Shown here one piece after another: positions 3,334-62,335 of a stretch of DNA of 64,000 nt. Origin of the DNA: Eledone cirrhosa (taxonomy: Eukaryota). Each line of letters opens with the position of its first letter. Position 1 is the stretch's first letter. Below the pieces are notes generated by a model that was given only the letters and a program-made list of their open reading frames with translations, had not been told where the DNA came from and searched no databases. A program made the translations under genes and the position numbers. The stretch is from NCBI GenBank assembly GCA_964016885.1, contig OZ024750.1, positions 49,352,001 through 49,416,000 of the forward strand, written 5' to 3'.

Positions 3334-4122
3334 CTAAAACACACCGGCCTCCTCGTTTTCCATTGTAGGCAGAGTTCGGTTCCTGCTTAATAAGTTTTGA
3401 TTTACAGTTCCTCTAGAATTAGTTTGCAGTGTGGCTCCAGGGATGAGTATTGCACTCCCAGCCGGATTGGTCCCACCGTTTGTTCCTTGCGATGAGGTAC
3501 TGTCAGCGGTTACGCTATTCTTTCGATTGGGTATATATTTAATTTTCTCCTTGTAACCTGCACTATTTAGGGCATTATTATAATAGCTAACTACGTTGTT
3601 GAAGGTTTCCTGGTTAGCTGACAGAAATGATATCCTAAGGCATACGCTATTAACTATGGCCCCCTTGACTGACCTGGGATGGTTGGAATTAGTATTTACG
3701 TACTTGAGGCACTCATTCGGCTTGTGGTACGGGTAGTAGAGGCCGGATTCTAGATTGAGGGTAACGTCCAGGAAGTTGACACTCTTTCTATTATTTTCTA
3801 TGTCTATGCTGAAAACCAAATTTTTGAAGAATCTAATTAAGCCTTTTATAATCCTATTTACCATGCTGTTGCTGTGGTTCAGTAGCATAAACAGAGCATG
3901 GTCGCGGTATATTCCACCGTCTAACGCTGGGATCTTGATTGTCAAGTTCCTGAGGATGTAGAGGCCCACCAGGTCAGTAACCTGCGCCGAGTCGCTCGAT
4001 CCCATCTTGATGTCAAATTGCCCGACCACTCTCTCCTTGTCCAAACCTATTAGTGTCTTCCTGGCAGTATGAATGATGTTAATTTCATCCCGACTTAAAT
4101 CTATATGGCTGCGTGAAAACAT
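3334..4122 (-). pseudogene. PLE reverse transcriptase core (catalytic YRDD mutated to YRDH)
   Basis: FDIKMGSSDSAQVTDLVGLYIL, GGIYRDHAL, VNFLDVTLNL, YYPYHKPN, YVNTNSNHP, ALNSAGY motifs. Confidence 0.9.
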
Positions 4123-5208
4123 AAGCGCCTTGTTAAGTACTACCGGGGAGATAGACGCATAAGAGTTCCATATATCTAGTTGTATAAACTTAGTCTTACG
4201 TTTGTTCTACAGGCCGTTAAACCATTCGATCACGTCCCCCGTTCTGGACCATTGCTGTAATTTAATCTTTTTAAAAGTGCTGGTATGATTCTGTCCGTAT
4301 TCCTTTGCTTATACACCCGATGCCAGACGTTGGTGGTATTATATGTCTGACTGGGAGTTCCGTTCCGAAGTTCAGTTTGTGATATTTCAGCAGTATACGG
4401 TGTTCTCTGAGTTGCTAGCGCTCGGTCCTATTAGCAATATTGAGTTTATTTACTATGCTATTCTTCTGTCTGTTGATTTCGTTAAGGTTAGCCTGCGAAC
4501 TTTTCCTGTAATTTCTTCGAAGTTCCTTTAGTATTAGTCTTCTATATATTGCTGTGACCATGTTGTAGAGGTTACCCGTTTTATCCGCATAAACGAGTAT
4601 TCCGTCCGAGCGTTTAAGTGTAGAAATTATATTCACTAGTTTCCTGAGGTGAGGCTGCTCCTTAGATGGGATCCTATTGAAGCTAACGCCCGAAATAATA
4701 TTGGCCATCTCTTTCTCAAAACCCTCCATAAGTTTGTTTTGGGGAGAGTTTTTTCAAGATTTAAAACCGAAAGTAGAGTTCGGTTTGCCAGTGTTTACAT
4801 CTTTGGTAGGGGTTTAGCTATCGTAATGGAAGGCCTTCCACCACATTCTGCGTATAAACGAGTCCGTTTTAAGGATCAGCTGTCAAGTGTACACCTTTTT
4901 GCTGGGTAAAGGAATGTCCTTCAGTTACTCGGAGATGTTAAATGATTGCAGCATATTTTCAGCTGCTTAGTCTCAAAGTGCTGGAGCCATATGTGTTCCG
5001 AAGAGATTATTTTGGTAAAAACTGGAGCAAGAAGGAGAAAGCTCTCAACATTCGTAGCTTTTAGTTACGATGGATATTTTTATATTATTGATAGTATTAA
5101 TACCATTGTAGTTACAACTGACTGCTATTGTGGTTAGTTATTTTCAGCACCGTGATTATTGCTGTCCTTGTGTTTTAGAGCGGAAGCGAAGATTGTCATG
5201 ATCATTAT

Positions 5209-5333: not shown

Positions 5334-5989
5334 GTTAGTAATGTCAGAACTTGTTTTCAGCGACCCCAACCACCAAGTCTTTTTGTTGTCGTCGTTTGCC
5401 GTGGTGGGTTCATTGGTGGTGTTGTTATTGTTGCTGGTGTTACCGCTGTCTGGCTCTCTGGTAATGGGTAATCACTGCCATTGACTGGCTACTAATATCA
5501 CTGGTACCACCACTACTGCAACGATCGGGGTGGGTGATGTGTGGTGTTATTGTTGTTGTTGTTGTTTATGTGCTGATGGGGAAAGATGCCATCAAGTCTG
5601 TGTATCGACCTACCTGAGAATTCCTTTTATTGCTGTGGCTGTTGTTATCGTTGTTGTTGTCAGTGCGGGGGGGGGGGGGGGGTGATGTCACTACCACTAC
5701 TACGACAAATTGAGGCGATGTTTGTCCGTGTTTGCTGTTGTTATCGTTGTAGTTGTTGTTGTTGTTGGTGTTGGTGTTGTTTTTGTTGTTGTTGTTGTAG
5801 CTGTTTACTGTAGCTGTTGCTACGGGGTTGTTGTCAGCGGGGTAATATTATCACTACGACTGCTGCAGCTATGGTAGGCGACGTTGCACGTTCTACCTGG
5901 AGTTGCGACCGGTAGATAATATTAGCAATTGGAAAGACCAACGGAAACATTGTTTCTTCGGTCCGATTTAACGAAAGTCAATCGATGCT

Positions 5990-6032
<43 letters not shown>

Positions 6033-6346
6033 ATAGATTCTAAAACAACATCATGTTCTTTTTTTAAACGCTGCCTTCAGTTTACCAAAATAAAACTAAA
6101 ACATGTCAGACAACTAGGTAAGAAATGTTCAGAGTCCAATATCCCTATAGAGAAATGTACATATTTACATCCGTTCTTTTAAAATATCTATATAATAATA
6201 TAATAGAGAAACCAATGCTTTCTCTAAAAATGGAATAGCTATAGATTAGAATCAATTCAGTTCATTGATATCATAATCAGGTCACATTAGAAGCTACAGA
6301 GCGAATTATTGTAATATAATGAGTGTGTAAACAGGTCCCACTGCTA

Positions 6347-7588: not shown

Positions 7589-7790
7589 CTTAACGGTTGG
7601 AGCTTCCTGGATAATATCCAGGAAGCTCCAACCGTTAAGGTTGTCTTTTTCCGGGTATGTCAATACTGATTTTAAAAAAAATCTGTATTTTATCTGATGA
7701 AAGCGCACCATAATTTGCCTTGGTTGCCCTTGAAATATATATAATAAAATAAATATGGTTTTATAAATATAGTTTCCATTTATATATATA
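7589..7790 (+). mobile_element. Short non-autonomous PLE pseudo-LTR with a 5' perfect hairpin (7589-7639) and HHR
   Basis: cttaacggttggagcttcctggata-a-tatccaggaagctccaaccgttaag (25 bp arms). The 3' part is homologous to 24762-25068, 43748-44052 and 53273-53345. Confidence 0.75.
7688..7749 (+). ncRNA. Minimal type I hammerhead ribozyme
   Basis: ttttat-CTGATGA-aagcgcacca..tggttgccctt-GAAA-tatat-ATA-ataaaa. Confidence 0.7.
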
Positions 7791-7794
7791 TATA

Positions 7795-8097
7795 TCTTAT
7801 GATAGCGAAGGACAGAACAGAGGAGAGGCACGAAACAAAGAAAATAATCCACAGTCACTGAAAAGGCACATAATATGTGACGAAAGAACTTAGACAATAT
7901 ATGAACAACCGCCCGGTTGTGGAATCAACGAACCAAACGGAAATTTAAAAAACAATTTTTAATTTATAATAAATTGGAGTGAAAGCTACTGGTGCCTGTG
8001 TTCCTTATTGGCAACATGACTCTCCGAAAGTATAATAACATCGGTTTCAACACACGTTTTCAGATAAAGAATCTTGCTAAACAAAGTCAGAAACGAT
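7795..8097 (+). mobile_element. Solo 3' end/pseudo-LTR of the Nematis-like PLE family, including 3' extension
   Basis: Homologous to 43310-43622: cagtcactgaaaaggcacataatatgtgacgaaagaacttagac ... atcggtttcaacacacgttttcagataaagaat. Confidence 0.82.
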
Positions 8098-11211: not shown

Positions 11212-12142
11212 GATTTTGCTCGCGCAGAGTCTTGTAGGGCAACAAATCAGTTGCTCAGTTGGGTTACAAAGGTTTTGTAAGTCTCAGGATTGGTATTCAG
11301 AACTGCCCAGTTGTAAGGAGTAGCATTTGCAGATTTCTCTTTATCCACTCGGAGACCTAATCGTATCTTAGCCGAGACAATGCGATGATCCGAGTCAACA
11401 CCAACAAATGAGTCATATGCTCTGCAGTTTTTTGCGCTGTTCTTCCATTTTCGATTGATTATGATATAATCCAGTTCTGTCTTGTCGCCATTTGGAGATT
11501 TGTGTGTCCACCGCTGGCCTGGTCTTTTTTGGAATATGGCGTTGAGACATCGTACATTGTTCTCACACAAGTAATCTTTTAGCATACAACTGTTTCTATT
11601 GGTTTGTGAGTGGTATGAGAATTTGAATCCATCAAGCTGTCCAAGACGCGCGTTGAAGTCTCCGCCAATGATGAGAACATTATGTTTCGGGATTTGTCCA
11701 GTGAGTGATGTTAGTTCCATGTAAAACCTCTCTACTTCGGCCATGTCACATACATTTGTGGGACTATAGCAAGAGATTACAGTGGTTTTAGGGTTCCCGT
11801 TAAACGTAGCTATCATTATCCTTGATGTTATCATTTCAACACTCGCAAGTGCATCATAGGCTCGCGGGCTGAAAAGCATTCCAACTCCACCATTTGCTGC
11901 ATTCATGTTGTTTTTCCAAGCTGAGCAGGTTATCAGCCTCCAATTGCCAAATATTTGCTCCTTTGTTACAAGCTCTTCATGTATAAACCGGTGCTCCTGA
12001 AGACGGATAACATCATGGTTGGTCGCCCCTGCTGAAGCAATCAGTTCAGGGATTTTATAGTCTTTCCGGAGTGTTTGAACATTGAGTGTACCAGCTAAGA
12101 TGTCTTTCTTTCCGTGTACAAGTCGGGTTGGTTTCTTTCTCC
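11212..12142 (-). mobile_element. RTE-clade LINE, 5' part (AP endonuclease), inverted relative to its RT half
   Basis: ILAGTLNVQTL, QEHR, GGVGMLFS, SCYSPTN, IIGGDFNA, ELDYIII, DSDHRIV are APE motifs; ORF 11247-11906. Confidence 0.92.
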
Positions 12143-12310
12143 GTTAGATATATGTGTGTATGTAGAAAGTTGTTCAACTTTTTCCTCTCTCTAAAGTTAA
12201 GTACGGTGATAAACACACCCACACACACGCTCACCTGTCTCTAATTTAAGAGTGCTGATACACACGCAGGTGTGCACACACCCTCGCCCACATACACACA
12301 GAGTCTCATT

Positions 12311-20834: not shown

Positions 20835-21000
20835 AACGAAGGAAATGTGGTAAGGAACCAGGTGGACCATAACGCACCAAAGTACTCAATACTTAGGGTA
20901 GTAGAGTGGGTAATAGGAACAAGTAAGACCCCGTCGGCTGAGCCAGAATTAGCCGTCGAAACGGCTTGAGCTCAGTCGTCGGGGTCTTACTGGTTCCTAT
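20835..21000 (-). mobile_element. Mini fold-back PLE end (half-hammerhead family), copy with a partly deleted arm
   Basis: Homologous to 52141-52335 and 62078-62266; flanked by (TA)n. Confidence 0.8.
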
Positions 21001-21153: not shown

Positions 21154-21240
<87 letters not shown>

Positions 21241-21244
<4 letters not shown>

Positions 21245-21664
21245 TTCAAAATATAAACACAATAGATATTCTTGTGATCAAGTATGTTTTATTATACATA
21301 TTTCAGAGGTACTGAGTTAACTTCAACAGTACGTCCTCATCAGATACAATAGAATGATGCATGACATACCCTGACATAGTCTATGGGTATGATTCAGTCA
21401 AGGTAGTACCATGACTGAATCTTAACCATCTACTATATCAGGGTATGTCATGCATCATCTTATTTTATCTGATGAGGACGTACTGTTGAATTTAACTCAG
21501 TACCTCCGATATATGTATAATAAAATATACTTGATCACAAGAATATCTATTTTGTTAATATTTTGAATTAATATTAATAACTCCGGAAAACAATATATCT
21601 TGAGTGCATCCAATCTATTGTAAAACTCATTCTTTCATTTATTTATTGAACCTTGTTTAACCTT

Positions 21665-24661: not shown

Positions 24662-25068
24662 AACAATGAGTTATTTGGTTTGTTGATTATTCAACAAAGT
24701 CAATTTACAAAAGCTTAGAAGCACTCAACGAAATATATCCGAAGTATCATTAATATCAAATAATATTAATAAATGGAAAATATATTTATAAAACCATATT
24801 TATGTTATTATATGTATTTCAATGGTACTAATATTTGAGTAAGCTTTCGTCAGATAAAATACAATAATTGGTGTAAAGATAGTGACATATCTTCATGTGA
24901 ACTTCCTGTTATAAGTTCATTGAACTTATAACATGAAGTTAACATGAAGATATGTCCCTATTATTATATTTTATGTGATGAAAGTGTACAAAAATATTAG
25001 TACCATTGAAAGACGTATAATAAATAAATATGGTTTTATAAAGATATTTTCCATTTATTAATATTAGT
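24662..25068 (-). mobile_element. Fold-back pseudo-LTR palindrome (24762-25068, centre about 24918) with HHR in each arm and extension on the left
   Basis: Minus-strand HHR 24805-24859 ttttat-CTGACGA-..-GAAA-tacat-ATA-ataa; plus copy has GTGATGA. Centre ttataagttca-t-tgaacttataa. Confidence 0.82.
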
Positions 25069-27886: not shown

Positions 27887-28921
27887 TTATTCGTATCGTA
27901 TATGTTCTGTTGCATTGTCAGCGCAAAGGTAAAATGGGAAGACTTGGAATTTGGGTGTGCATATCTCTAGATGTGTGCTTAGTGGTATCTGTCTCGTGGG
28001 TGGATCTCGTAATTGTTGGCGATGAACTGTCATTCTGTTTCTGAGTGCGAGAATAGTTTGTCCTATATAATCTTCATTGCATCCTTTACATTTAATGGCA
28101 TAAAGTAGATTATATGATGAGCAAGTGAAGTGATTTTTTGCAGCAACATTGTGTCCTGATTGAAATGTATACATGTTGCCTTCAATGAGGTGAGAGCAGG
28201 TTCCACAATTAGAGCGACCACATTTTTTGATACTTGGTTGTGGGTTTGTGGTAGGTAATTTGGCATTGGTGAGTAATGTTTTCAGTGATTTCGGTTGTCT
28301 TTTGCTTTTGATTATTTTGTGTGTTTCAGGGGCTTTTTTCATTCTTGGGTCTTGTTTTAATAGTGGGATGTTCTTGTGAATAGTATTGTAAGCTTCCGCA
28401 TTTCTTGGGTTGTGTGTTGAGATATATGATAGAATATTGGAAGTACCTTGAATTTGTTTCTGATTTCGTACTTCATGAATGCCTATTGCTTTAGCTCTTT
28501 CTATTCCATTATTTATTAGTAATGGTGGGTACTTTCTTTCGAGTAGAATTTCCTTTAATTCTTGAAGTCTTTTATTTCGCGTTTCATAATTGGAGACTAT
28601 TATGCAAATTCTTCTTGCTAGGTTAAAAGTAATGTTCGTCTCCGTTTGCGTTGGATGGTTGGAGGTGAATAGCAGGTATTGTTTGGAATCTGTTGGTTTG
28701 TAGTGTATGTCAGTTTCAATATTTGTGTCTTTTTTTAAGATGAAGATGTCCAGAAATGGGAGTTGATCTTGGATGTATTCCATTGTGAATTGGATGTGGT
28801 TATTGATGCCGTTAATTAAATTTTTGAAATCATTCCGTTGGTCGAGTGTGTGGGACCAAAGAATGAGACAATCATCCATGTAGCGTTTCCAATTCTCTGG
28901 TAAATATTTATGGATATTCAA
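27887..28921 (-). pseudogene. PLE RT thumb, Cys-rich linker and GIY-YIG endonuclease (longest open piece, 344 aa)
   Basis: WKRYMDDC, LPFLDI, HYKPTDSKQYL, CGRSNCGTC, FTCSSYNLLYAIKCKGCNEDYIGQT, RNRMTVHR. Confidence 0.92.
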
Positions 28922-30130
28922 TCCGTATTTTGATTTGGACTGTTATTATATCTGGACTTCTAAGTATGTCATGACTAAGTTGGCATAAGTTGAAGCGGCT
29001 TTTGTACGCATCGCAGTCCCCGATATTTGCTTGTAGGTACGGCCATCGAAATCAAAAAGGTTTTTCTGTAAGATACATTTTCATGAAGCTTTTTTCTATT
29101 CTGCCTGGTATCTCATTGGGATATTTCTCTAGCCAGAATCCTATTGCTTCTAGTCCGTATTGGTGTGGCATCGTTGTGTAGAGATTCACTACATCGAAAT
29201 ACACAATAATAGTGTCGTTGTTGACATGTTGGGGAGGTGGTTTAAGAGGTCCAGATCGTCTCTTACAAGGTCTGGTATGTGTTTGAGAATTGGTTTTTGT
29301 AGTATGTCTATAAAGTTGCTCAGTCTGTGTGTTTCACATTGTGGGCCCGCTACAATTGGTCTTAATTCAAGGTCTGTGGGCATTGTGTATTCACGCAGAC
29401 TGAGGTGGATTGTTTACAGGCATCGTTAATTATGTTACACTTGTGGATCTTCGGAAGTCCGTAAAGGTTGCTGGTTTTGGATTCAAAATGTGTTAAATAA
29501 TCACGTTCCTTTTTAGTTAAGTTTTCCTGGTATCGACAAATCAGTGTGTTTAATCTGGTCATTCTTTTTGATTGCTGGTTGTTGTTTTACTCTTTCATAG
29601 TAATTAGTATTTTGTAAGACAGAGAACATAGCATGTTTATATTTTTCAGCCTCCATAATGACAACAGTACTTCCCTTGTCCGCTTCCTTAATTATAATGT
29701 CCGTATTGTTTTTTAGTTCATGGATAATCTCCCTTTCCCTTCGACTCGTGTTGGGTTTCGGTTTAGGTTGCGGTAGTTCATGGTATGGGAAAATAGTTAT
29801 GTAGTCACAAAATTTGTCCAGAACTCTATTTCTACCTTTTGTTGGGTTGTAGCTGCTTTTATTCCGTACAAATGATTGGCCGTTATTCTCCTTGTCAAAG
29901 AATTTTTTCGTGAGACGTAATTTTCTACAGAAGTGTGAGCTATCGTCATTTATCTCGTTGAGGTTAGAGTATTGTGGTGTTGGTATGAACTTCAGTCCTT
30001 TGGAGAGAATTTTAACTAGTTGGGCTGAGAGGTTTGTATTTGAAAGGTTAATTATGTTCGGTTTTTCAAAATCGGTGTGTATCATCGGGTGTCGTGTGTC
30101 CTACACACACACAGACACATATACATATGA

Positions 30131-38825: not shown

Positions 38826-39780
38826 GTATCATAATTGCAACCTATTTTTATCAGTTCCTATGCCTGGCTGGAGCAACGTGAAATAAATTGCTTTGCTCTC
38901 CGACAGAAGCGCTGTCGATAGTCCTATTTACAAGCGTAAGGCCCTGACCCAAACTTCCTAAACACAAACCACAGATTCACAGGGTGAGCTGAAACCATAA
39001 CAACCATACAATCTTTTGCAAGTGTACATATCATCACAGAGGTATAAAATAGATCCTATACTATCCTGCAACTGGAAACAGTTGCAGTGGGTCAACGTTT
39101 TTTAATTAAACGCATTAATTATTCGTTCATTTAAAGGTAATATTTATACATAATTACGAATCTCTGTCACTGGACGTTTCCAGCTGTTTTCGATTTACAC
39201 ATGCATTTGATTGATTGTCATCGGTGCGCACCCTTTAACCTTTAACGCACTTGACCTTTGTGGTAGGTGATACAGAGTGTCATGCCACAATGAAGTAATA
39301 ATTATTTACATATAGTCAAATATTCATAGAAAACTATAATGCAATTACTACTGCATAACGCCTCGAGATGAGCACAAATATGTATTAAGTGACAAATTAG
39401 ATAATAATTATCTGTCACGTACATAATGATTAATAAATATCCAATATATCATCCAGTTGTTCATATAATACGCAATATCATCCCCCCCCCCCTACGTTGT
39501 TAATGGTTGGTTAACTCAATTCACCTTCAACCAGCAACAGTTTTCCCGTCAGTAGCGTCATGGAGGAAATGTTAATTTGTAAAGGCCTAATAGATATTAT
39601 GAATGTGTTATAGTATTTAATTATATGTAATTTGACTTTCTCACGCACACTCAATCACGCAATACGTACACACAATATATTTGGTCGTGCATATGCACGT
39701 AGAGGTTATATAGATCTGTAATCATATGTATAAACATAAACATATATATATATATATATAAGATATATATATATAAACGG

Positions 39781-39837
<57 letters not shown>

Positions 39838-39981
39838 ATACTTTGGGACGGTCATGTTACCAATAAGAAACACACGCACCATGCTTTCACTTCAATTTAT
39901 TACAATAGATTGATAAATTTAGGAATATATAAATTTCCGGTTGGTTGGTTGGTTCCACAGCCAGATGATTGTTCATATATG

Positions 39982-40024
39982 GTCAAAGTACTTTCGTCAC
40001 ACATTCTGTGACTTCTTCAGTGAC
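39982..40024 (-). ncRNA. Minimal hammerhead ribozyme (inverted arm)
   Basis: gtca-CTGAAGA-agtcacagaatgtgtgac-GAAA-gtac-TT-tgac. Confidence 0.7.
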
Positions 40025-41769
40025 TGGGGATTATTTTCTTTGTGTTTGTGCCTCTCCTTTGTTCTGTCCTACGCCATCTTGTTTGTGTGTGTGTTGTGTG
40101 ATTAGTTTGCGCATGTGTTACATCTGGGTGTATGTGTGTGGTTATATTTGTTTATTTATTTGTTTATTTACATGTTACTGGTTGGTTGTTTGTTCTATGT
40201 GCGTGTGTGTTTTCATTTTGTCCTTAATTGTAAGTTGTGATGTTGCTGTTCCATTCATGTTTTCTATTTAATTCTGGTTGGAGTTCATTTATGTGTATTG
40301 CCTCTGTGATTTGTCTAAACATTGCGTATTTTCTGTGTGTAGATTCTATTTTTATTTCTATGTTCTCTAATTTACCCTTATGTGCTATTTTAGCATGTTG
40401 GTAGAGCACAAATGATTATTTACTATCTTGAAGCTCTCGCCAGTGTTCATTTATCCGTTCCCCTACAATACGAGCTGTCTCACCTATGTACACTATATTC
40501 TAATCTCTACATTGTCATTCAGTACAACTTATGCTATATACTACATTTCTAGTTTTACAGTTAATATGGGAGCTTAATTTACAGATTATACATTACTTAT
40601 CTATACAGGGAGGTCTTTGAAAAGGGTATGTATTGCTAATAAGTGTTTTTTATAGAGGTACCTGGTCTTTATACTATCTTAATATTGAGTTTATGTTTAT
40701 CTAGTGCCCTTCTAAATTTGTAAGCTAATTCACCTCTAGGGGTTGTATCGATGATCATTACACTCTGGTATGTATTGCTATCATACCATGAGTTTATTCT
40801 ATTAACCTTATTCCTAGTTCTTTCTATTCTATTCTAAAATTTGCTCCTATACAAGGGGTAGGTCCCATTTATGTCATTATTTACCATTGTTTCCATTTGG
40901 TTCTGGCGCCTCTATATACTCTTATTTGATCTCTCCGATTGTAACCAGAGAACTGCATACGGTGGATGAAGTGTTGTATGTGTCTCTCTAGTTCTTTGTG
41001 GTTGCACATGCGGGACACGTTTTTCATCACCCGTACCAAATCCGCAATTAGTATGTTCATTTTGGTATGTTCCGAAACAGCTGACTTTCGGTGGATCAGA
41101 TATTTGGAAGTCATGGGTTTGGCATAATGGAATGGAGGATTGTTTTTTTGTTATTAATGGTATCTAACCAGAGCTCTGTCTCTAGTACAGATAATCGATG
41201 GTTGGGGTGTTTGCTTGGGTAGTCTATAGTAACTCTAATACTCTGGTGGATGGAGTTAGCTATTTGCTGGATGCTTTCCATGGTGTTTTTCTCTAATTCC
41301 TGACGGTTCTCTAGTGGGGGTGTTTTTACTACGATGTATATATCATCAACGTAGCGGGAGTACATTATCAGGGTTAAGGGATTGCTGTCTTCTAATTGTT
41401 CTTTAAGTTTAAGTTTAAGTCTACTGTCCCAATGTGACAGCATGGAGGACCTCCTCAGCAGAATGCGCGACAGTAACCGATCTAGGGACCTAACAAACTG
41501 CATAATAGGTAGTATGGATGTTGTGTCCCTGTATCCATCTATTGACGTGGATTTTGCTGTGGAGAAATGCGTAGAAATGATCAGTGAGAGCAATGTTGAA
41601 TTCCGTGGGATTGATACCAGTGAGCTGGGACTCCTACTTAAACTTACCTATAGTAATACTTATCTAGATACATATGGCCTTAGCAACCTATGCCCTACAA
41701 GATAGCAAGAGGCAGACCACATACCATTACCTCAATGGCCAAAAAAACCCACACAGATAGAAGGAACGG

Positions 41770-42522
41770 GTGGACCAGAGCCATACGGACCCCGAAAACC
41801 ACGATCAACTAAATAAAATGATTGCACATGCGGTGGGGGCCAGCATAAAATTAACGCTTACTGACCATATGTTCAAATTTAATAGAAAAACATATGCCCA
41901 GCAGGAGGGAGTAGCCATTGGTGTTAGCATTGCAGGTGACATAGCTAAACTATTCATGGTATGGTGGGACAATAGACTTAAACTTAAACTTAAAGAACAA
42001 TTAGAAGACAGAAACCCCTTAACCCTGATAATGTACTCCCGCTACGTTGATGATATATACATCGTAGTAAAAACACCCCAACTAGAGAACAGTCAGGAAT
42101 TAGAGAAAAACACCATGGAAAGCATCCAGCATATAGCTAACTCCATCCACCAGAGTATTAGAGTTACTATAGACTACTCAAGCAAACACCCCAACCATCG
42201 ATTACCTGCATTAGACACAGAGCTCTGGTTAGATACCATTAATAACAAAAAAACAAATCCTCCATTCCATTATGCCAAACCCATGACTTCCAAATATCTG
42301 ATCCACCGAAACTCAGCTGTTTCGGACCATACCAAAATTAACATACTGATTGCGGACTTGGTACGGGTGATGAGAAACATGTCCCGCATGTGTAACCCCA
42401 AAGAACTAGAGAGACACATACAACACTTCATCCACTGTATGCAGTTCTCTGGTTACAATCGGAGAGATGAAATCAGAGTATATAGAGGAGCCAGCAGCAA
42501 ATGGGAAAAAAATGGTAAATAA
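41770..42522 (+). pseudogene. PLE reverse transcriptase fragment
   Basis: FKFNRKTYAQQEG.AIG, RYVDD, LPALDTELW, YAKPM, QFSGY motifs; frameshifted at both ends. Confidence 0.9.
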
Positions 42523-43370
42523 TAACACAAATGGGACCTACCCCTTGTATAGGAGCACATTTTGGAATAGAATAGAACAAATTAGGAATAAAGTTAATAG
42601 AATAAACTCATGGTATGATAGCAATAAATACCAGAGTGTAATGATCATCGATACAACCCCTAGAGGTGAATTAGCTTACACATTTAGAAGGGCCCTAGAT
42701 AAACATAAACTCAATATTAAGATAGTAGGAAGACCAGGTACCTCCATAAAAACACTAATTAGCAATACATACCCTTTTCAAAGACCTGCCTGTATAGATA
42801 AGTAATGTATAATCTGTAAATTAAGCCCCCATATTAACTGTAAAACTAGAAATGTAGTATATAGCATAAGGTGTACTGAATGACAATGTAGAGATAAGAA
42901 TATAGTCTACATAGGTGAGACAGCTCGTAGTATAGGGGAACGGAAAAATGAACACTGGCGAGACATTCAAGATAGTAAATAATCATCTGTACTCAACCAA
43001 CATGCTAAAATAGCACATAAGGGTAAATTAGAGAACATAGAAATAAAAATAGAATCTACACACAGAAAAGACGCAAAGTTTAGACAAATAACAGTGGCAA
43101 TAACATAAATGAACTCCAACCAAAATTAAATAGAAAACATGAATGGAACAGTAACACCACAACTTACAATTAAGGACAAAATGAAAACACACACGCACAT
43201 AGAACAAACAACTAACCAGTAACTTGTAAATAAACAAATAAACAAACAAATATAAACACACAGACAACCGGATGTAACACATGCTCAAACTAAGCACACA
43301 ACACACACAAACACAAGATGGCGTAGGACAGAACAAAGGAGAGGCACAAAAACAAAGAAAAGAATCCCCA

Positions 43371-43413
43371 GTCACTGAAGAGGTCACATAATGTGTGACG
43401 AAAGATCTTTGAC
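43371..43413 (+). ncRNA. Minimal hammerhead ribozyme
   Basis: gtca-CTGAAGA-ggtcacataatgtgtgac-GAAA-gatc-TT-tgac. Confidence 0.7.
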
Positions 43414-43621
43414 AATATATAAACAATCATCTGGTTTCGGAACCAACCAACCAACCGGAAATTTATAAATTCCTAAATTTATAAATTGATTATAATAAAT
43501 TGAAGTGAAAGCAACTGGTGCGTGTGTTTCTTATTGGCAACATGACCCTCCATAAGTATAACAATATCGGTTTCAACACACGTTTTCAGATAAAGAATAT
43601 TACTAAACAAATTCAGAAACG

Positions 43622-43661
<40 letters not shown>

Positions 43662-43664
<3 letters not shown>

Positions 43665-44049
43665 AAAGTTCTATTTAAATTGTTGGGATACAACAAGCAA
43701 ATAATTTTATAACTGATATAAAGCACTCGACAAATATTTGGAGTAGATATACGATATTAATAAATGGAAACTATATTTATAAAACCATATTTATTTCATT
43801 ATATATATTTCAAGGATACCAAGTTAAATTATGGTATGCCTTCATTAGACAAAATACAATATATAACAGTTTTATAAATAGACATTGACGTACCCTTTTA
43901 AAAAGTGACCGTTGCTTTTGGAGGCCATCAGGATATCATATATTGTATTTTATCTGATGAAGGCATACCATAATTTAACTTGGTATCCTTGAAATATATA
44001 TAATGAAATAAATATGGTGTTATAAATATAGTTTCCATTTATTAATATC

Positions 44050-44052
<3 letters not shown>
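43662..44052 (-). mobile_element. Fold-back pseudo-LTR element: inverted arms 43748-43862 / 43939-44054, extension on the left
   Basis: atacgatattaataaatggaaactatatttata... mirrored; HHR in both arms (minus-strand copy has CTAATGA). Confidence 0.85.
43946..44010 (+). ncRNA. Minimal type I hammerhead ribozyme
   Basis: tattttat-CTGATGA-aggcatacca-taatttaact-tggtatcctt-GAAA-tatat-ATA-atgaaata. Confidence 0.75.
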
Positions 44053-44108
<56 letters not shown>

Positions 44109-52010: not shown

Positions 52011-52044
52011 TTCCTGATAAAGGACTAATGTCCGAAACGTCGTA
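52011..52044 (+). ncRNA. Hammerhead-like motif, degenerate
   Basis: CTGATAA-aggac-taat-gtcc-GAAA-cgtc; stem II is good but stem I is poor. Confidence 0.4.
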
Positions 52045-52140
52045 TCCTGCTTCACTTCCATGAAATCTGACCCTATTATAACTGTGTAATATTTCCTCCT
52101 GTGTTTTGTTAGTTCATCTTTCAAGTATATATATATATAT

Positions 52141-52333
52141 ATAGGAACAAGTAAGACCCCGACGGCTGAGCTCAAGCCGTTTCGACGGCTAATTCTGTAC
52201 AGAATTAGCCGTCGAAACGGCTTGAGCTCAGCCGTCGGGGTCTTACTTGTTCCTATTACCCACTCTACTACCCTAAGTATTGAGTACTTTGGTGCGTTAT
52301 GGTCCACGTGGCTCCTTACCACATTTCCTTCGT

Positions 52334-52335
<2 letters not shown>
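52141..52335 (+). mobile_element. Mini fold-back element: perfect 116 bp palindrome (52141-52256) plus about 78 bp tail
   Basis: Centre ctgt|acag. Each arm carries the HHR 3' half GAAA-cggct-tgagctc-agccg-TC-ggggtc; (TA)n flanks. Confidence 0.9.
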
Positions 52336-52486: not shown

Positions 52487-52643
52487 AAAGATTCAGTACC
52501 CCGAAGGCAGAGCTCAAGCCGTTTAAACGGCTTGAGCTCTGCCATCGGGGTGCTGAATCTTTTCCTATTACCGACTCTACGAACCTAAGTATCGAGTACT
52601 CTGGCGCGTTATGGTCCACCTGGTTCCTTATCACACTTCCTTC

Positions 52644-52646
<3 letters not shown>
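52487..52646 (+). mobile_element. Mini fold-back element, diverged subfamily, centre gttt|aaac
   Basis: aagattcagtaccccgaaggcagagctcaagccgttt-aaacggcttgagctctgccatcggggtgctgaatctt plus the homologous tail. Confidence 0.85.
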
Positions 52647-53469: not shown

Positions 53470-55830
53470 TTTGCGAGGTTTTAGATATGAAATCGTGTGT
53501 CGAAACAAATAGTGTTATACTTGGGGAGGGTCATATTTTTGTAATAATATTGCCAGAATTAATAACAGAACACACTAACTGTTTGGTTGATTTTCGCTTC
53601 TGTATTTTTTATATCAGCTAATTTATTCGGTCCTTAATGTTACCATTGACTGACCAACGGTCAAAATACTGGTATAATATAGATACAAATATATACATAT
53701 AGTCTAACAAAGCTCTTTCGTTGCACATCTGCAACATCGTCAGTGGTGATATTATGTTTCCTCCTGTTGTATTGTATGACTACGCCATCTTTATTTAATC
53801 TGTTTATTTATTTGTGTCTTCTTCTCTGCGCATGTGTTTGCGTGTGTGTATAATGTTCGATGTGTGTTCTCGTTTGGGTGACTGTGTTTTGGTTATTGTA
53901 TTCTATCTTAGTTTACCAGTGTGTGTTTATATGGGTTTGTTGTTATTGTGCTTCTGTATATATTTATTTATTTATTTATATTTCACTTAGGTCAGTATTG
54001 TTTGTTTGTGTGTTGTTATTCCATTCATTTTTTCTGTTTAGCTTTTGCATTCTAAGTTGTATTTCACTGGCCTCTCTGATTTGCCAATCTGCTGTGTCAT
54101 TTATCTGTTTAGATATTATTTTAATTTCTATGTTGTCTATGTTACCGTTGTGTTATGGTGTGGCGTGTTCGTATAGTACTGAACCGTTTTTCTAACTTTT
54201 ACTTCCCCACAGTGTTGGTCTATCCTTTCTCCTATTCTACGAGCTCTCTCTCCTATGTATGCTGTTGTAATGTTTCTGCAAGTACCCTCTGTACATCTTA
54301 TGCTATAGACTACGTTCTAGATTTACAGTTTATCGTGGTGTTTACTTTACATATAATACATTTTCTATCAGTACAGCGGGTTTTCGTAAAGTGGTATGTT
54401 TTGCTGATCAGGGATTTTATGGTTGTTCCTGGCTTTTTTACCACCGTAATCTTTAAGTGGGTATTTCTCAGGGCCTTTCTACATTGGTTAGCTAATTTCC
54501 CTCCAGGGGTAGCGACCACAAACATGACACTCTGGTATCTCTGGTTGTCGTACGATGAGGTGGCTTTCGCTCTCTTATGTTTAGTCCTATCTAAGCTATT
54601 CCATGATTTGCGCCTGTATAATGGGCACATTCCTTTCATGTCCAGTTCTATGAGGGTCTTATACTTCTCCGTGGCTCCTTCGTATACTCTGATTCAGTCT
54701 CTTTGGTTGTAGCCAGAAAACTGCATGCGGTTTATGAAGTATTAGATGTATTTCCATTTCTGTTGGGTCGCACATGCGGGACACGTTCTTCGTCACTCGT
54801 ACCAAGTCTGCGATCAGAATATTAAACTTAGCACTACTGGACATTGCTGAGTTTTTGAGTATCAGGTATTTGGTGGCCATGGGTTTAGCAGTAGTGTGAG
54901 TGGAGAATTTGGGCTCTCTCATCTATAGTGTTAATCCGGAGTTTCGTGTGTTATACAGGTAGTCTATTGTTAGGGTGTTTGGAAGGGTAGTCGATAGTTA
55001 CAGTTATATTCTGGTGCATGGAATTAACTATCTGCTGGATGATTTCCATTGTCCTACATTCTAAATCATACTTGTTAGTACTCTCTTGAGTGTATGTCCT
55101 TATTAATATATTGATGTCGTCTACGTAACGAGAGTACATGATCGGGTCTATGGATCTCTCATCAAGGAGATATTTGAGTCTCCTTTCCCACCATACCATA
55201 AAAAGGTTGGCAACGTCACCAGCTATGCTGACGCCAATGGCTTCTCCCTCATTTAGGGTGTAGATCTTCTCGTTGAATTTGAATATGTGGCACTTTAGGT
55301 TAGTTTTAATACTAGCCCCTATTGCATGTGCAATCATTTTTCTTACTTGATCATTGTTTCAGCCGGTCCGTATGGCTTTGGTCCGCCCAATCCGCCTTCC
55401 CATGGGAGTCTTTTTTGACATTAAGGTTATTGTGGGGAGTCTACCTCTTATGGGTCTACTGGGGCAGGAACGGCTAAGGTCATGGCTGTCTAGGTAGTCA
55501 GTGTCATCAGCAAGTCTAAGGAGGAGGCCCAGTTCGTCTGTGTCGACGTCGCAGAACTCCACCTCACTATCATTGATCATCTCCACACATGTTTCCACTG
55601 CAAAAAAAAAACAAACTTAATGGGTGGGTATAGTGATACCACGTCCATACTACCTATTATTCAGTTGGATAGGTTTTTGTTTTTGTTGCATTCACTGATT
55701 CTGCTGAGGAGGTCCTCTCTACCATCACATACTTTTGGAGACATCTTGTTTATGGGGTGTATAACCATTGAGAGGAAGTAGGAGATCCTGTAGTTGCTAC
55801 GATATATGCTTCGCATACAGGTCTTATAAT
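53468..55830 (-). mobile_element. Second 5'-truncated Nematis-like PLE, decayed
   Basis: ORFs 55359-55598, 54951-55337 (GEAIGVSIAGDVANLFMVWWE, YSRYVDDI), 54659-54922, 54310-54639 (CTDRKCIICK..NCKSR), then VVYSIRCTEGTC..AYIGE. Pseudo-LTR with HHR-like ctgacga..gaaagagctt near 53705-53745. Confidence 0.9.
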
Positions 55831-55857: not shown

Positions 55858-56706
55858 TGACAGACGTAGCATTACCGGCAGAATGTATCAAAGACCACAC
55901 AATAAATATTTATGGGAACACTTTAATCAGTGAACAAGAACAACAGGTTCAACCGCTCACACCAACATTTGCTATCTACAAAGAGATTAATCCAATCGAG
56001 TGCAAAACAGAACTGGAAAAGTGTTACACAAAAATACGCTGGAATGCGATATAAACAACAACAACTATACGGACAACAACAACAATAATAATGATAATAG
56101 TAATATAAACGATATCTCTGAGTATAGAAATAATAACTATAAAAGTAATAGTCATAACAATAACAATAGCAGGACAGTGAGAAATAGTAATAATAATAAT
56201 GGTAATAACATTAACGATAGACAGAACAACAACAACACCCACAATAATAATAATATAAACATTAACGACAGACACAACAACAACAACCACAGAAGTAATA
56301 ATTGTTTCTACTTTTGGCACAAGGCCAGCAAATAACCAGTGTATTACTGGTACTTTATTTTATCGACCCCGTAAGGACGAAAGGCAAAGTTAACCTCGGC
56401 GGGATTAATAATGGAAATAATACGAGTAACAACAACAACAGACACATTAGTAATAATAGAAATAATACGTGTAGGAACATTAATTATAAACACAACAAGA
56501 AAAATATTTTCGCATTCCAACGTATTTTTGTGAAACACTTTTCCACTTTTCCAGCTCCGTTTTGCACACGATTGGATTAATCTTTTTGTAGATAGCAAAT
56601 GTTGGTCTGAGCTGTAGAACATGTTGTTCTTGTTCATTGATTAATGTGTTCCCATAAATATTTATTGTGTGGTATTTGGTAAATTCTGCCGGTAATGCTA
56701 CATCTG
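55858..56706. repeat. Inverted pair of PLE N-terminal coding fragments (55858-56050 / 56508-56706) around an (AAC/AAT)n tract and a SINE
   Basis: Both encode DVALPAE..K.HTINIYGNTLI.EQEQ.V..L.PTFAIYK.INPI.CKTELEK on opposite strands. Confidence 0.8.
56297..56405 (-). mobile_element. SINE family A 3' half
   Basis: taattgtttctacttttggcacaaggccagc...ggtactttattttatcgaccccgtaagg..aaaggcaaagttaacctcggcgggatt. Confidence 0.85.
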
Positions 56707-56709
56707 TCA

Positions 56710-58115
<1,406 letters not shown>

Positions 58116-62077: not shown

Positions 62078-62079
<2 letters not shown>

Positions 62080-62262
62080 ACGATGGAAATGTGGTATGGA
62101 ACCAGGTGGACCATAACACACCAAAGTACTCAATACTTAGTGTAGTAGAGTGGGTAATAGGAACGAGTAGGACCCCGACGGTTGAGCTCAAGCCGTTTCG
62201 ACGGCTAATTCAGAATTAGCCGTCGAAACGGCTTGAGCTCAGGCGTCGGGGTCCTACTCGTT

Positions 62263-62298
<36 letters not shown>

Positions 62299-62335
62299 AA
62301 CGAGTAGGACCCGACGCCTGAGCTCAAGCCGTTTC
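62078..62335 (-). mobile_element. Mini fold-back element (palindrome about 62157-62266, centre aattc-a-gaatt), plus an extra arm fragment at 62294-62334
   Basis: Homologous to 52141-52335; both arms share the variants gagtaggacccc / ggggtcctactc. Confidence 0.88.

Follow-up and report, generated by a model that had tools for sequence, protein, structure and literature searches.

What process gives rise to a short sequence that is its own reverse complement, holds half of a ribozyme in each arm and bears a tail on one side only? The question is raised by positions 52141-52335 of the window, the whole stretch of 64,000 nucleotides analysed here. The 116 bp at 52141-52256 equal their own reverse complement (maximal arm 58), a 79-bp tail adjoins them and both flanks are (TA)n, which confirmed the perfect palindrome with a tail in microsatellite DNA that a sequence-only reading had described. 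The further copies which that reading had placed at 20835, 52487 and 62078, with differing centres, were all present (Table 1). Its microsatellite setting held for the (TA)n of the focal copy, but the left end of the copy at 52487 adjoins a (GA)n tract and not (TA)n. The four copies it had counted are real, but a fifth, tail-less half copy had been overlooked.

Table 1. Features of the focal palindrome and its copies in the window. Parent positions are relative to the A (0) of YAGT(C/A)CAG.
Feature	Position	Strand	Remarks
Tail-less inverted arm	52141..52198	-	Outer end meets (TA)n at the inner fixed site GTTCC/TAT (parent +57..+60)
Centre GTAC, 4-nt self-complementary word	52197..52200	.	Parent +1..+4, one base behind the putative transcription start (0)
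Sense arm	52199..52256	+	Loop II 3' part, stem II 3' strand, GAAA, stem III, cut site, stem I 3' strand
Stem II 3' strand	52206..52213	+	Parent +10..+17; partner strand (parent -34) absent
GAAA half of catalytic core	52214..52217	+	Parent +18..+21
GUC triplet and stem I 3' strand	52234..52241	+	Predicted cut 52236/52237 (parent +40/+41); micro-palindromes end there
Tail between two fixed ends	52257..52335	+	Meets (TA)n at the outer fixed site TCGT/TAT (parent about +138..+141)
Second copy	20835..21000	-	Tail-less arm reaches +3, tail arm from near +30; tail-less arm longer
Older-subfamily copy	52487..52646	+	Both arms stop at +19 within GAAA
Fourth copy	62078..62267	-	Centre at +5/+6
Fifth, tail-less half copy	62294..62335	+	(TA)n tract common to it and the fourth copy

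The window is dense in fragments of Hydra-like, Neptune-like and LINE elements. A large inverted Penelope-type insertion at 39741-43662, with arms of about 1.7 kb and reverse transcriptase (RT) fragments, has a minimal hammerhead in each arm, at 40020 (-) and 43375 (+). Further minimal hammerhead motifs are found at 53743 (-) and at 52014-52045, the latter with a C3.A8 core and 100 nt upstream of the focal palindrome. Fragments of other Hydra-like and Neptune-like ORFs and of an APE-type LINE are located at 56683-57234 (+), 3337-4206 (-), 27890-30100 (-) and 11250-12143 (-).

The Penelope-like parent and its hammerhead

A Penelope-like parent with the complete hammerhead fold upstream of the arm had been predicted and was found. 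Among the 30 best matches, six continued upstream. The parent encodes a single ORF, RT followed by a GIY-YIG endonuclease, which is continuous with the arm, and in the parent the sequence of the tail continues to the start of this ORF. Such continuation is rare, with 151 matches of a 21-mer genome-wide. One copy (L031) is a partial tandem consisting of repeat, 90 nt, ORF, 1.4 kb and repeat. The motifs FDIESYY, YRDDG and VIYQC..YIGLT were read from the translation of a 682-aa frame, and in other copies the frames reach about 800 aa. The parent ORF had no match when its sequence was searched against Pfam and PDB; 1,205 homologues were found. The protein carries the Hydra-type motifs RWR, SDKTG, CNCPDRSSC, CNLC and CKH, and the target is (TA)n. 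By these motifs, set against the clade description in the available part of PMC8557442, the parent is probably a Hydra-clade Penelope-like element; the Neptune clade, considered first, was replaced by this assignment. Pseudo-LTRs formed by a partial tandem, an inverted 5' copy and a one-end tail were seen in L031, L276, L277 and L279.

The arm corresponds to only the 3' half of a hammerhead, as had been claimed, and this half matches the hammerhead fold of the parent. On the 5' side of the parent, stem I and the core lie at -44, the stem II 5' strand at -34 and a TATA-like box at -30; on the 3' side follow the stem II 3' strand at +10..+17, GAAA at +18 and GUC at +38..+40. The type I topology (three stems, core, GAAA and NUH cut site) was present in both the minimum-energy and the centroid folds of the parent, with a fold z-score of -0.46. 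Rfam scans of the window and the parent gave no hammerhead, and the matches in the window were hairpin-type miRNA models, all below their cut-offs. The expected CUGANGA core was not the one encountered: the parent has UUGA(U/G)AA or CUGAGAA (TTGAGAA, TTGATAA and CTGAGAA in DNA). Two subfamilies were distinguished, TCTT with U3:A8 in 28 of 29 long copies and TCCT with a C3.A8 mismatch in 10 of 15. U3:A8 is a known hammerhead core variant according to the available part of PMC4209133.

In L031 the leader between 0 and the start codon lies at 5832-6070 (minus strand numbering), and in its predicted fold the 3' half of the ribozyme pairs with the sequence immediately preceding the AUG. This modelled fold may occupy the half ribozyme or form a binding site for the protein. 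Tandem or chimeric structures were observed in L168, L274, L183, L201, L208, L188 and L273, in which the upstream unit stops at +231..+255, at the ORF start. These copies suggest a short RNA that has its 3' ends at +231..+255 and onto which template jumps can be made. In L274, units of about 274 bp lacking the 5' core form an array, and L168 is likewise a tandem array without this core half. A non-LTR retrozyme, composed of tandem units each with a complete hammerhead, was rejected for the mini elements, which are inverted and have half a ribozyme.

Positions at which the arms end

The tail 35-mer gave 19,505 exact matches in the 3.0-Gb genome and the reversed control gave 0, so the palindrome family is not a product of chance. 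Genome-wide, 11,199 arms were joined to TATATA at the inner fixed site; both figures are lower bounds on the copy number, and the palindromes number in tens of thousands of copies. A sample of 95 tail copies was drawn from the 90 of these 19,505 places that came first in the list (first 31 Mb of contig C1), arm length being ignored in the choice. Sixty of these were short one-tail palindromes, in 48 of which the outer end of the tail-less arm lay on one and the same base. When arm lengths were compared (>3 nt), the tail-less arm was longer in 19, the tail arm was longer in 14 and the arms were level in 27. The outer ends fell at two fixed sites ~80 nt apart (+57..+60 and about +138..+141). Palindromes with a tail on both arms exist too (L018, L029).

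Arm ends were placed for 205 arms from loci unselected for arm length. A wall was apparent in loop II, with 113 ends in -5..+6 (the -4 and -3 bins being inflated by chance pairing at the centres), compared to 9 in -59..-6 and 14 further upstream; the remainder comprised 50 in +7..+39 (including 14 at +15..+21) and 19 at +40..+43. The wall surrounds an Initiator-like YAGT, 30 nt behind the TATA-like box, both named after the usual Initiator and TATA consensus sequences. The box is poorly kept (TATTCAAATA, TATTCATATA in 12/42). The same wall is also the 5' end of the downstream unit at four head-to-tail junctions (L181, L183, L201 and L208), where there is no fold-back. Against the wall as an end counts that 15 of 20 placeable full-length-side copies extend past it. 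The pyrimidine of the parent at -1 was found in 14,561 arms genome-wide, and 41 of the first 100 continue into the parent (hand count), hence the ribozyme is no barrier. Many arms hold 1-4 bases 5' of 0, or extra T runs. The centres of L079, L131 and L007 have long A or T runs beside TTTAG at -3..+1, as though the enzyme stuttered where its template ends. The YAG words near 0 were also considered as a 3' splice site, but this reading was rejected, as the arms retain the AG and have no upstream exon in common.

A second family, B, is represented in the window by short palindromes in (TA)n at 43744-44058, 21238-21574, 24761-25066 and 7684-7795. Each arm has a complete CUGAUGA-type hammerhead, the centres lie 5' of the ribozyme and there are two fixed 3' ends about 87 nt apart. 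Out of 30 arms, 13 were long, 11 had their start at 0..+19 relative to a TCACT that precedes the core by about 88 nt, and 6 started further 3'. The wall tracks the Initiator-like word and not the ribozyme. The junctions of family B gave 262 matches; once long-arm mutants and templated bases had been removed, a hand count of the first 100 yielded ~16 untemplated G, 3-4 A and 8-10 T. In 11 long copies of family B, no parent ORF was found.

The sequence-only reading had proposed that RT stalls in stem II of the hammerhead and that the cDNA snaps back on this hairpin. Its expectation that the centres relate to the ribozyme was borne out insofar as they are strongly non-random and most fall in the stem II/loop II interval; no pile-up occurs at the base of stem II. 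A snap-back should keep the stem II 5' strand and the loop at the centre, which was the case in 1 of 60 palindromes, and a stall should peak at the 3' base of the stem, at +15..+21, where few ends lie in comparison with -5..+6. The distribution of the ends and the scarcity of stem II 5' strands thus rule against this reading. The joins of L082, L150 and L121 do use stem II and III repeats as microhomology, which speaks in its favour, but the occurrence of the wall at head-to-tail joints, an extra G on both arms (see below) and the folding of family B 5' of its whole ribozyme make it very improbable.

A purine differing from the parent at -1 was found in 3,183 arms genome-wide and was G in 87 of the first 100 (hand count); 43 of these G arms, versus 13 A, were not explicable by the partner arm. 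Five fetched solo copies read (TA)n-G-AGTCC. Both arms reached 0 with a non-parent purine at 340 loci genome-wide, and by hand count of the first 50 the G was on both arms in 45 and on one in 5, A being on both in none. A single A or T stood between the arms in 29 of the same 50 (hand count); its orientation was mixed and gives no order of events. The extra G on both arms is likely a copy of the RNA cap, as an extra 5' G has been interpreted for L1 and SVA in the available part of PMC2912911. Position +5 served as control with 860 matches. By hand count, 28 point mutants were dropped from the first 100, leaving 72 junctions with 27 untemplated G, 23 templated G and 22 A. The G excess at 0 relative to +5 is a modest difference (Fisher p 0.023 on hand counts), and as +5 is also G-rich, part of the excess may come from a minor start or from a tendency that the enzyme shows generally. 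From these junctions we infer that the major RNA 5' end would be a capped transcription start inside loop II.

A minor class ends elsewhere. Very short palindromes, here called micro-palindromes, were found at 369 loci by pattern search, and 19 of 19 fetched were whole insertions with the tail. The first 50 were classified by hand. Both arms ended at +41 around one A/T in 9, around longer inserts in 9 and bluntly in 11, whereas 6 were blurred by CpG decay, 7 represented +40 ends or microhomology and 8 were other. No A/T spacer at +42, +39, +38 or +37 was present in these 50 (hand count). Genome-wide, the +41 class with an A/T spacer was represented by 47 copies of the TCTT subfamily (U3:A8) and 7 of TCCT, against a background of 50 TCTT and 65 TCCT arms in a neutral sample. 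The centres of this class appear to be set by the ribozyme, at its cut site, and the +41 ends together with the core bias of 47 versus 7 suggest that the hammerhead is cleaved in vivo. Alternatively, these ends could stem from stalling at the base of stem III, which +41 adjoins, or from later deletion at the word CCCCGGGG. The 11 blunt centres and the 7 of type CCCCG-W-CGGGG among the 50 fit microhomology or a +40 end, and the subfamilies may differ beyond the core. Stem III is alike in both subfamilies, however, in spite of the skewed numbers, and the untemplated spacers and the jumps from +41 into ORF sequence in L260 and L273 indicate a free end. Stalling or deletion is an unlikely explanation, with some weight left to it for part of this class. 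The palindrome centre likely marks the 5' end of an RNA, namely the transcription start or, less often, the ribozyme cut site.

Formation of the palindromes

That both arms stem from one RNA is supported by two sets of counts. Arms with an A before +41 numbered 426; by hand count of the first 100, 37 were point mutants, 13 abutted flank, 4 abutted the ORF and 46 had an inverted partner. In 42 of these 46 (hand count) the partner stopped at or before the cut, compared to 3 of 60 in the general set. Also the subfamily tags agreed between the arms in 72 of 77 palindromes.

We assign a probability of about 0.7 to the palindromes being formed by two target-primed reverse transcriptions of one RNA, which run off at its 5' end and are joined head-to-head. 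The course of events may be depicted as follows: The enzyme would nick both strands of the (TA)n target, and priming would take place at both of the start sites between which the tail lies. Both cDNAs would be copied from the same RNA to its 5' end, which would imply strand displacement, and their 3' ends would be united either through microhomology or through an end-to-end template jump that adds one untemplated base. In the focal copy the two ends would join through GTAC at +1..+4. Long arms would result from priming at the 3' copy of the repeat. Because the element's own start would lie inside loop II, these RNAs would be devoid of the 5' half of the core, and so would the palindromes. Cleavage would require a read-through RNA, the cut product of which would give the minor class.

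In one alternative, a single cDNA that has run off at the RNA 5' end copies itself after folding back or being sealed into a hairpin there, with the second strand halting at the inner TAT by target pairing. The concordance of the arms in tags and in end position would follow from it directly, a single self-copied cDNA would also explain the chimeric junction that the arms of L273 have in common, and self-priming was proposed earlier from palindromic junctions (PMC3846280, as far as available). An extra G per arm and no more than 0-1 unpaired bases at the centre leave no loop for folding back, however, and the 19 palindromes with the longer tail-less arm would need a later deletion. The inner end lies on one base in most palindromes and also on a solo arm (L272), and in another element two RT starts account for the tail in vitro (available part of PMC11167929). 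Folding back is for these reasons rather improbable. Twin priming on two separate RNAs in a dimer, with the ends joined by host repair, gains some support from the 5 of 77 palindromes with discordant tags and from short arms that have long partners, but it leaves the stop of nearly all partners of cut-site arms at or before the cut, rare in the general set, without a reason, and it is quite improbable.

A DNA transposon of MITE type, with its TA target duplication hidden in the microsatellite, would be short, palindromic, very abundant and situated in TA, as these elements are. It was rejected and is hardly credible, given that the tail lies outside one arm, whose inverted repeat is therefore not at the end of the element, that the centres vary per copy and that the sequence is continuous with the ORF of an RT-encoding parent. 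The wider proposition, for which we would offer even odds, is that twin target-primed copying of a single RNA from two fixed starts, with run-off and an end-to-end jump between the cDNA ends, is the general route to one-tail inverted repeats of Penelope-like elements, and that the hammerhead would cut in vivo, on read-through RNA only as the element's own start splits the ribozyme, the cut RNA still serving as template.

Comparison with known systems

All comparisons in this section refer to the available parts of the cited sources. The formation of one-tail inverted repeats and hammerhead cutting in vivo were stated there as open (PMC8557442, PMC4209133, PMC11167929). The tens of thousands of young junctions provide base-level evidence on both questions, with exact positions and a natural pair of core variants. 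Should the account be true, palindrome centres would be a DNA-only readout of the start site and of ribozyme activity for any such family, and a Penelope origin may apply to many of the short palindromic repeats now classed as MITE-like. In the literature searched, as far as available, no paper mapped palindrome centres to a capped start or a ribozyme cut; the supplements of PMC8557442 may list the family, and older reviews may bear on the model.

The Hydra clade (Craig et al. 2021, PMC8557442) has in common with the parent a C-terminal GIY-YIG, an RWK-like motif, DKT, a CxCX5C linker and CxxC/CxH, as well as (TA)n targets, a hammerhead in the repeat, an inverted 5'-truncated copy and a one-end tail. 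The parent differs in a unit of about 3.8 kb versus under 3 kb, a tail of about 80 versus 30-40 nt, a non-canonical core and the huge class of 120-200 bp palindromes with centres at two defined points. In Poseidon PAc (Frangieh et al. 2024, PMC11167929) two RT starts likewise bound the tail, the target is AT-rich with both strands cut and the ribozyme lies just upstream; a predicted dimer was also reported. No RNA reads ending at the ribozyme cut were reported in that study, the ribozyme was dispensable in vitro and the inverted arm was not addressed. Here, in contrast, genomic copies end at the cut site, and the two putative starts have TAT in common with the target.

The minimal Penelope hammerheads and animal retrozymes (PMC4209133; bioRxiv 10.64898/2026.07.22.740005) resemble the ribozyme described here in type I fold, U3:A8 variant, palindromic loop III and opposite-strand pairs close together. 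The long loop II of the parent, with the putative start in it, and a stem III of 6-7 bp set it apart from these hammerheads, and the half ribozyme and inverted rather than tandem arrangement set the mini elements apart from retrozymes. With L1 twin priming and R2 end-to-end template jumping (PMC2912911) the proposed route shares two target ends that prime on one RNA, an extra 5' G and a jump at the template 5' end. The cDNAs of L1 cover different parts of the RNA, whereas here the same stretch would be copied from two fixed starts, yielding a one-tail palindrome.

The sequence-only reading was not aware of an earlier description, but one-tail inverted repeats with self-priming as their proposed cause are already found in PMC3846280. 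That head-to-head self-priming model for Penelope (Arkhipova et al. 2013) also has palindromic junctions, a tail and a TATA plus Initiator-like motif in the repeat, but it requires an antisense template, while the present junctions agree with two rounds of copying from a capped sense template. One-tail inverted repeats, palindromic junctions, the self-priming hypothesis, hammerheads in the repeats and two RT starts are thus already in print. The architecture is known; the junction evidence suggests a new account of how the structure forms.
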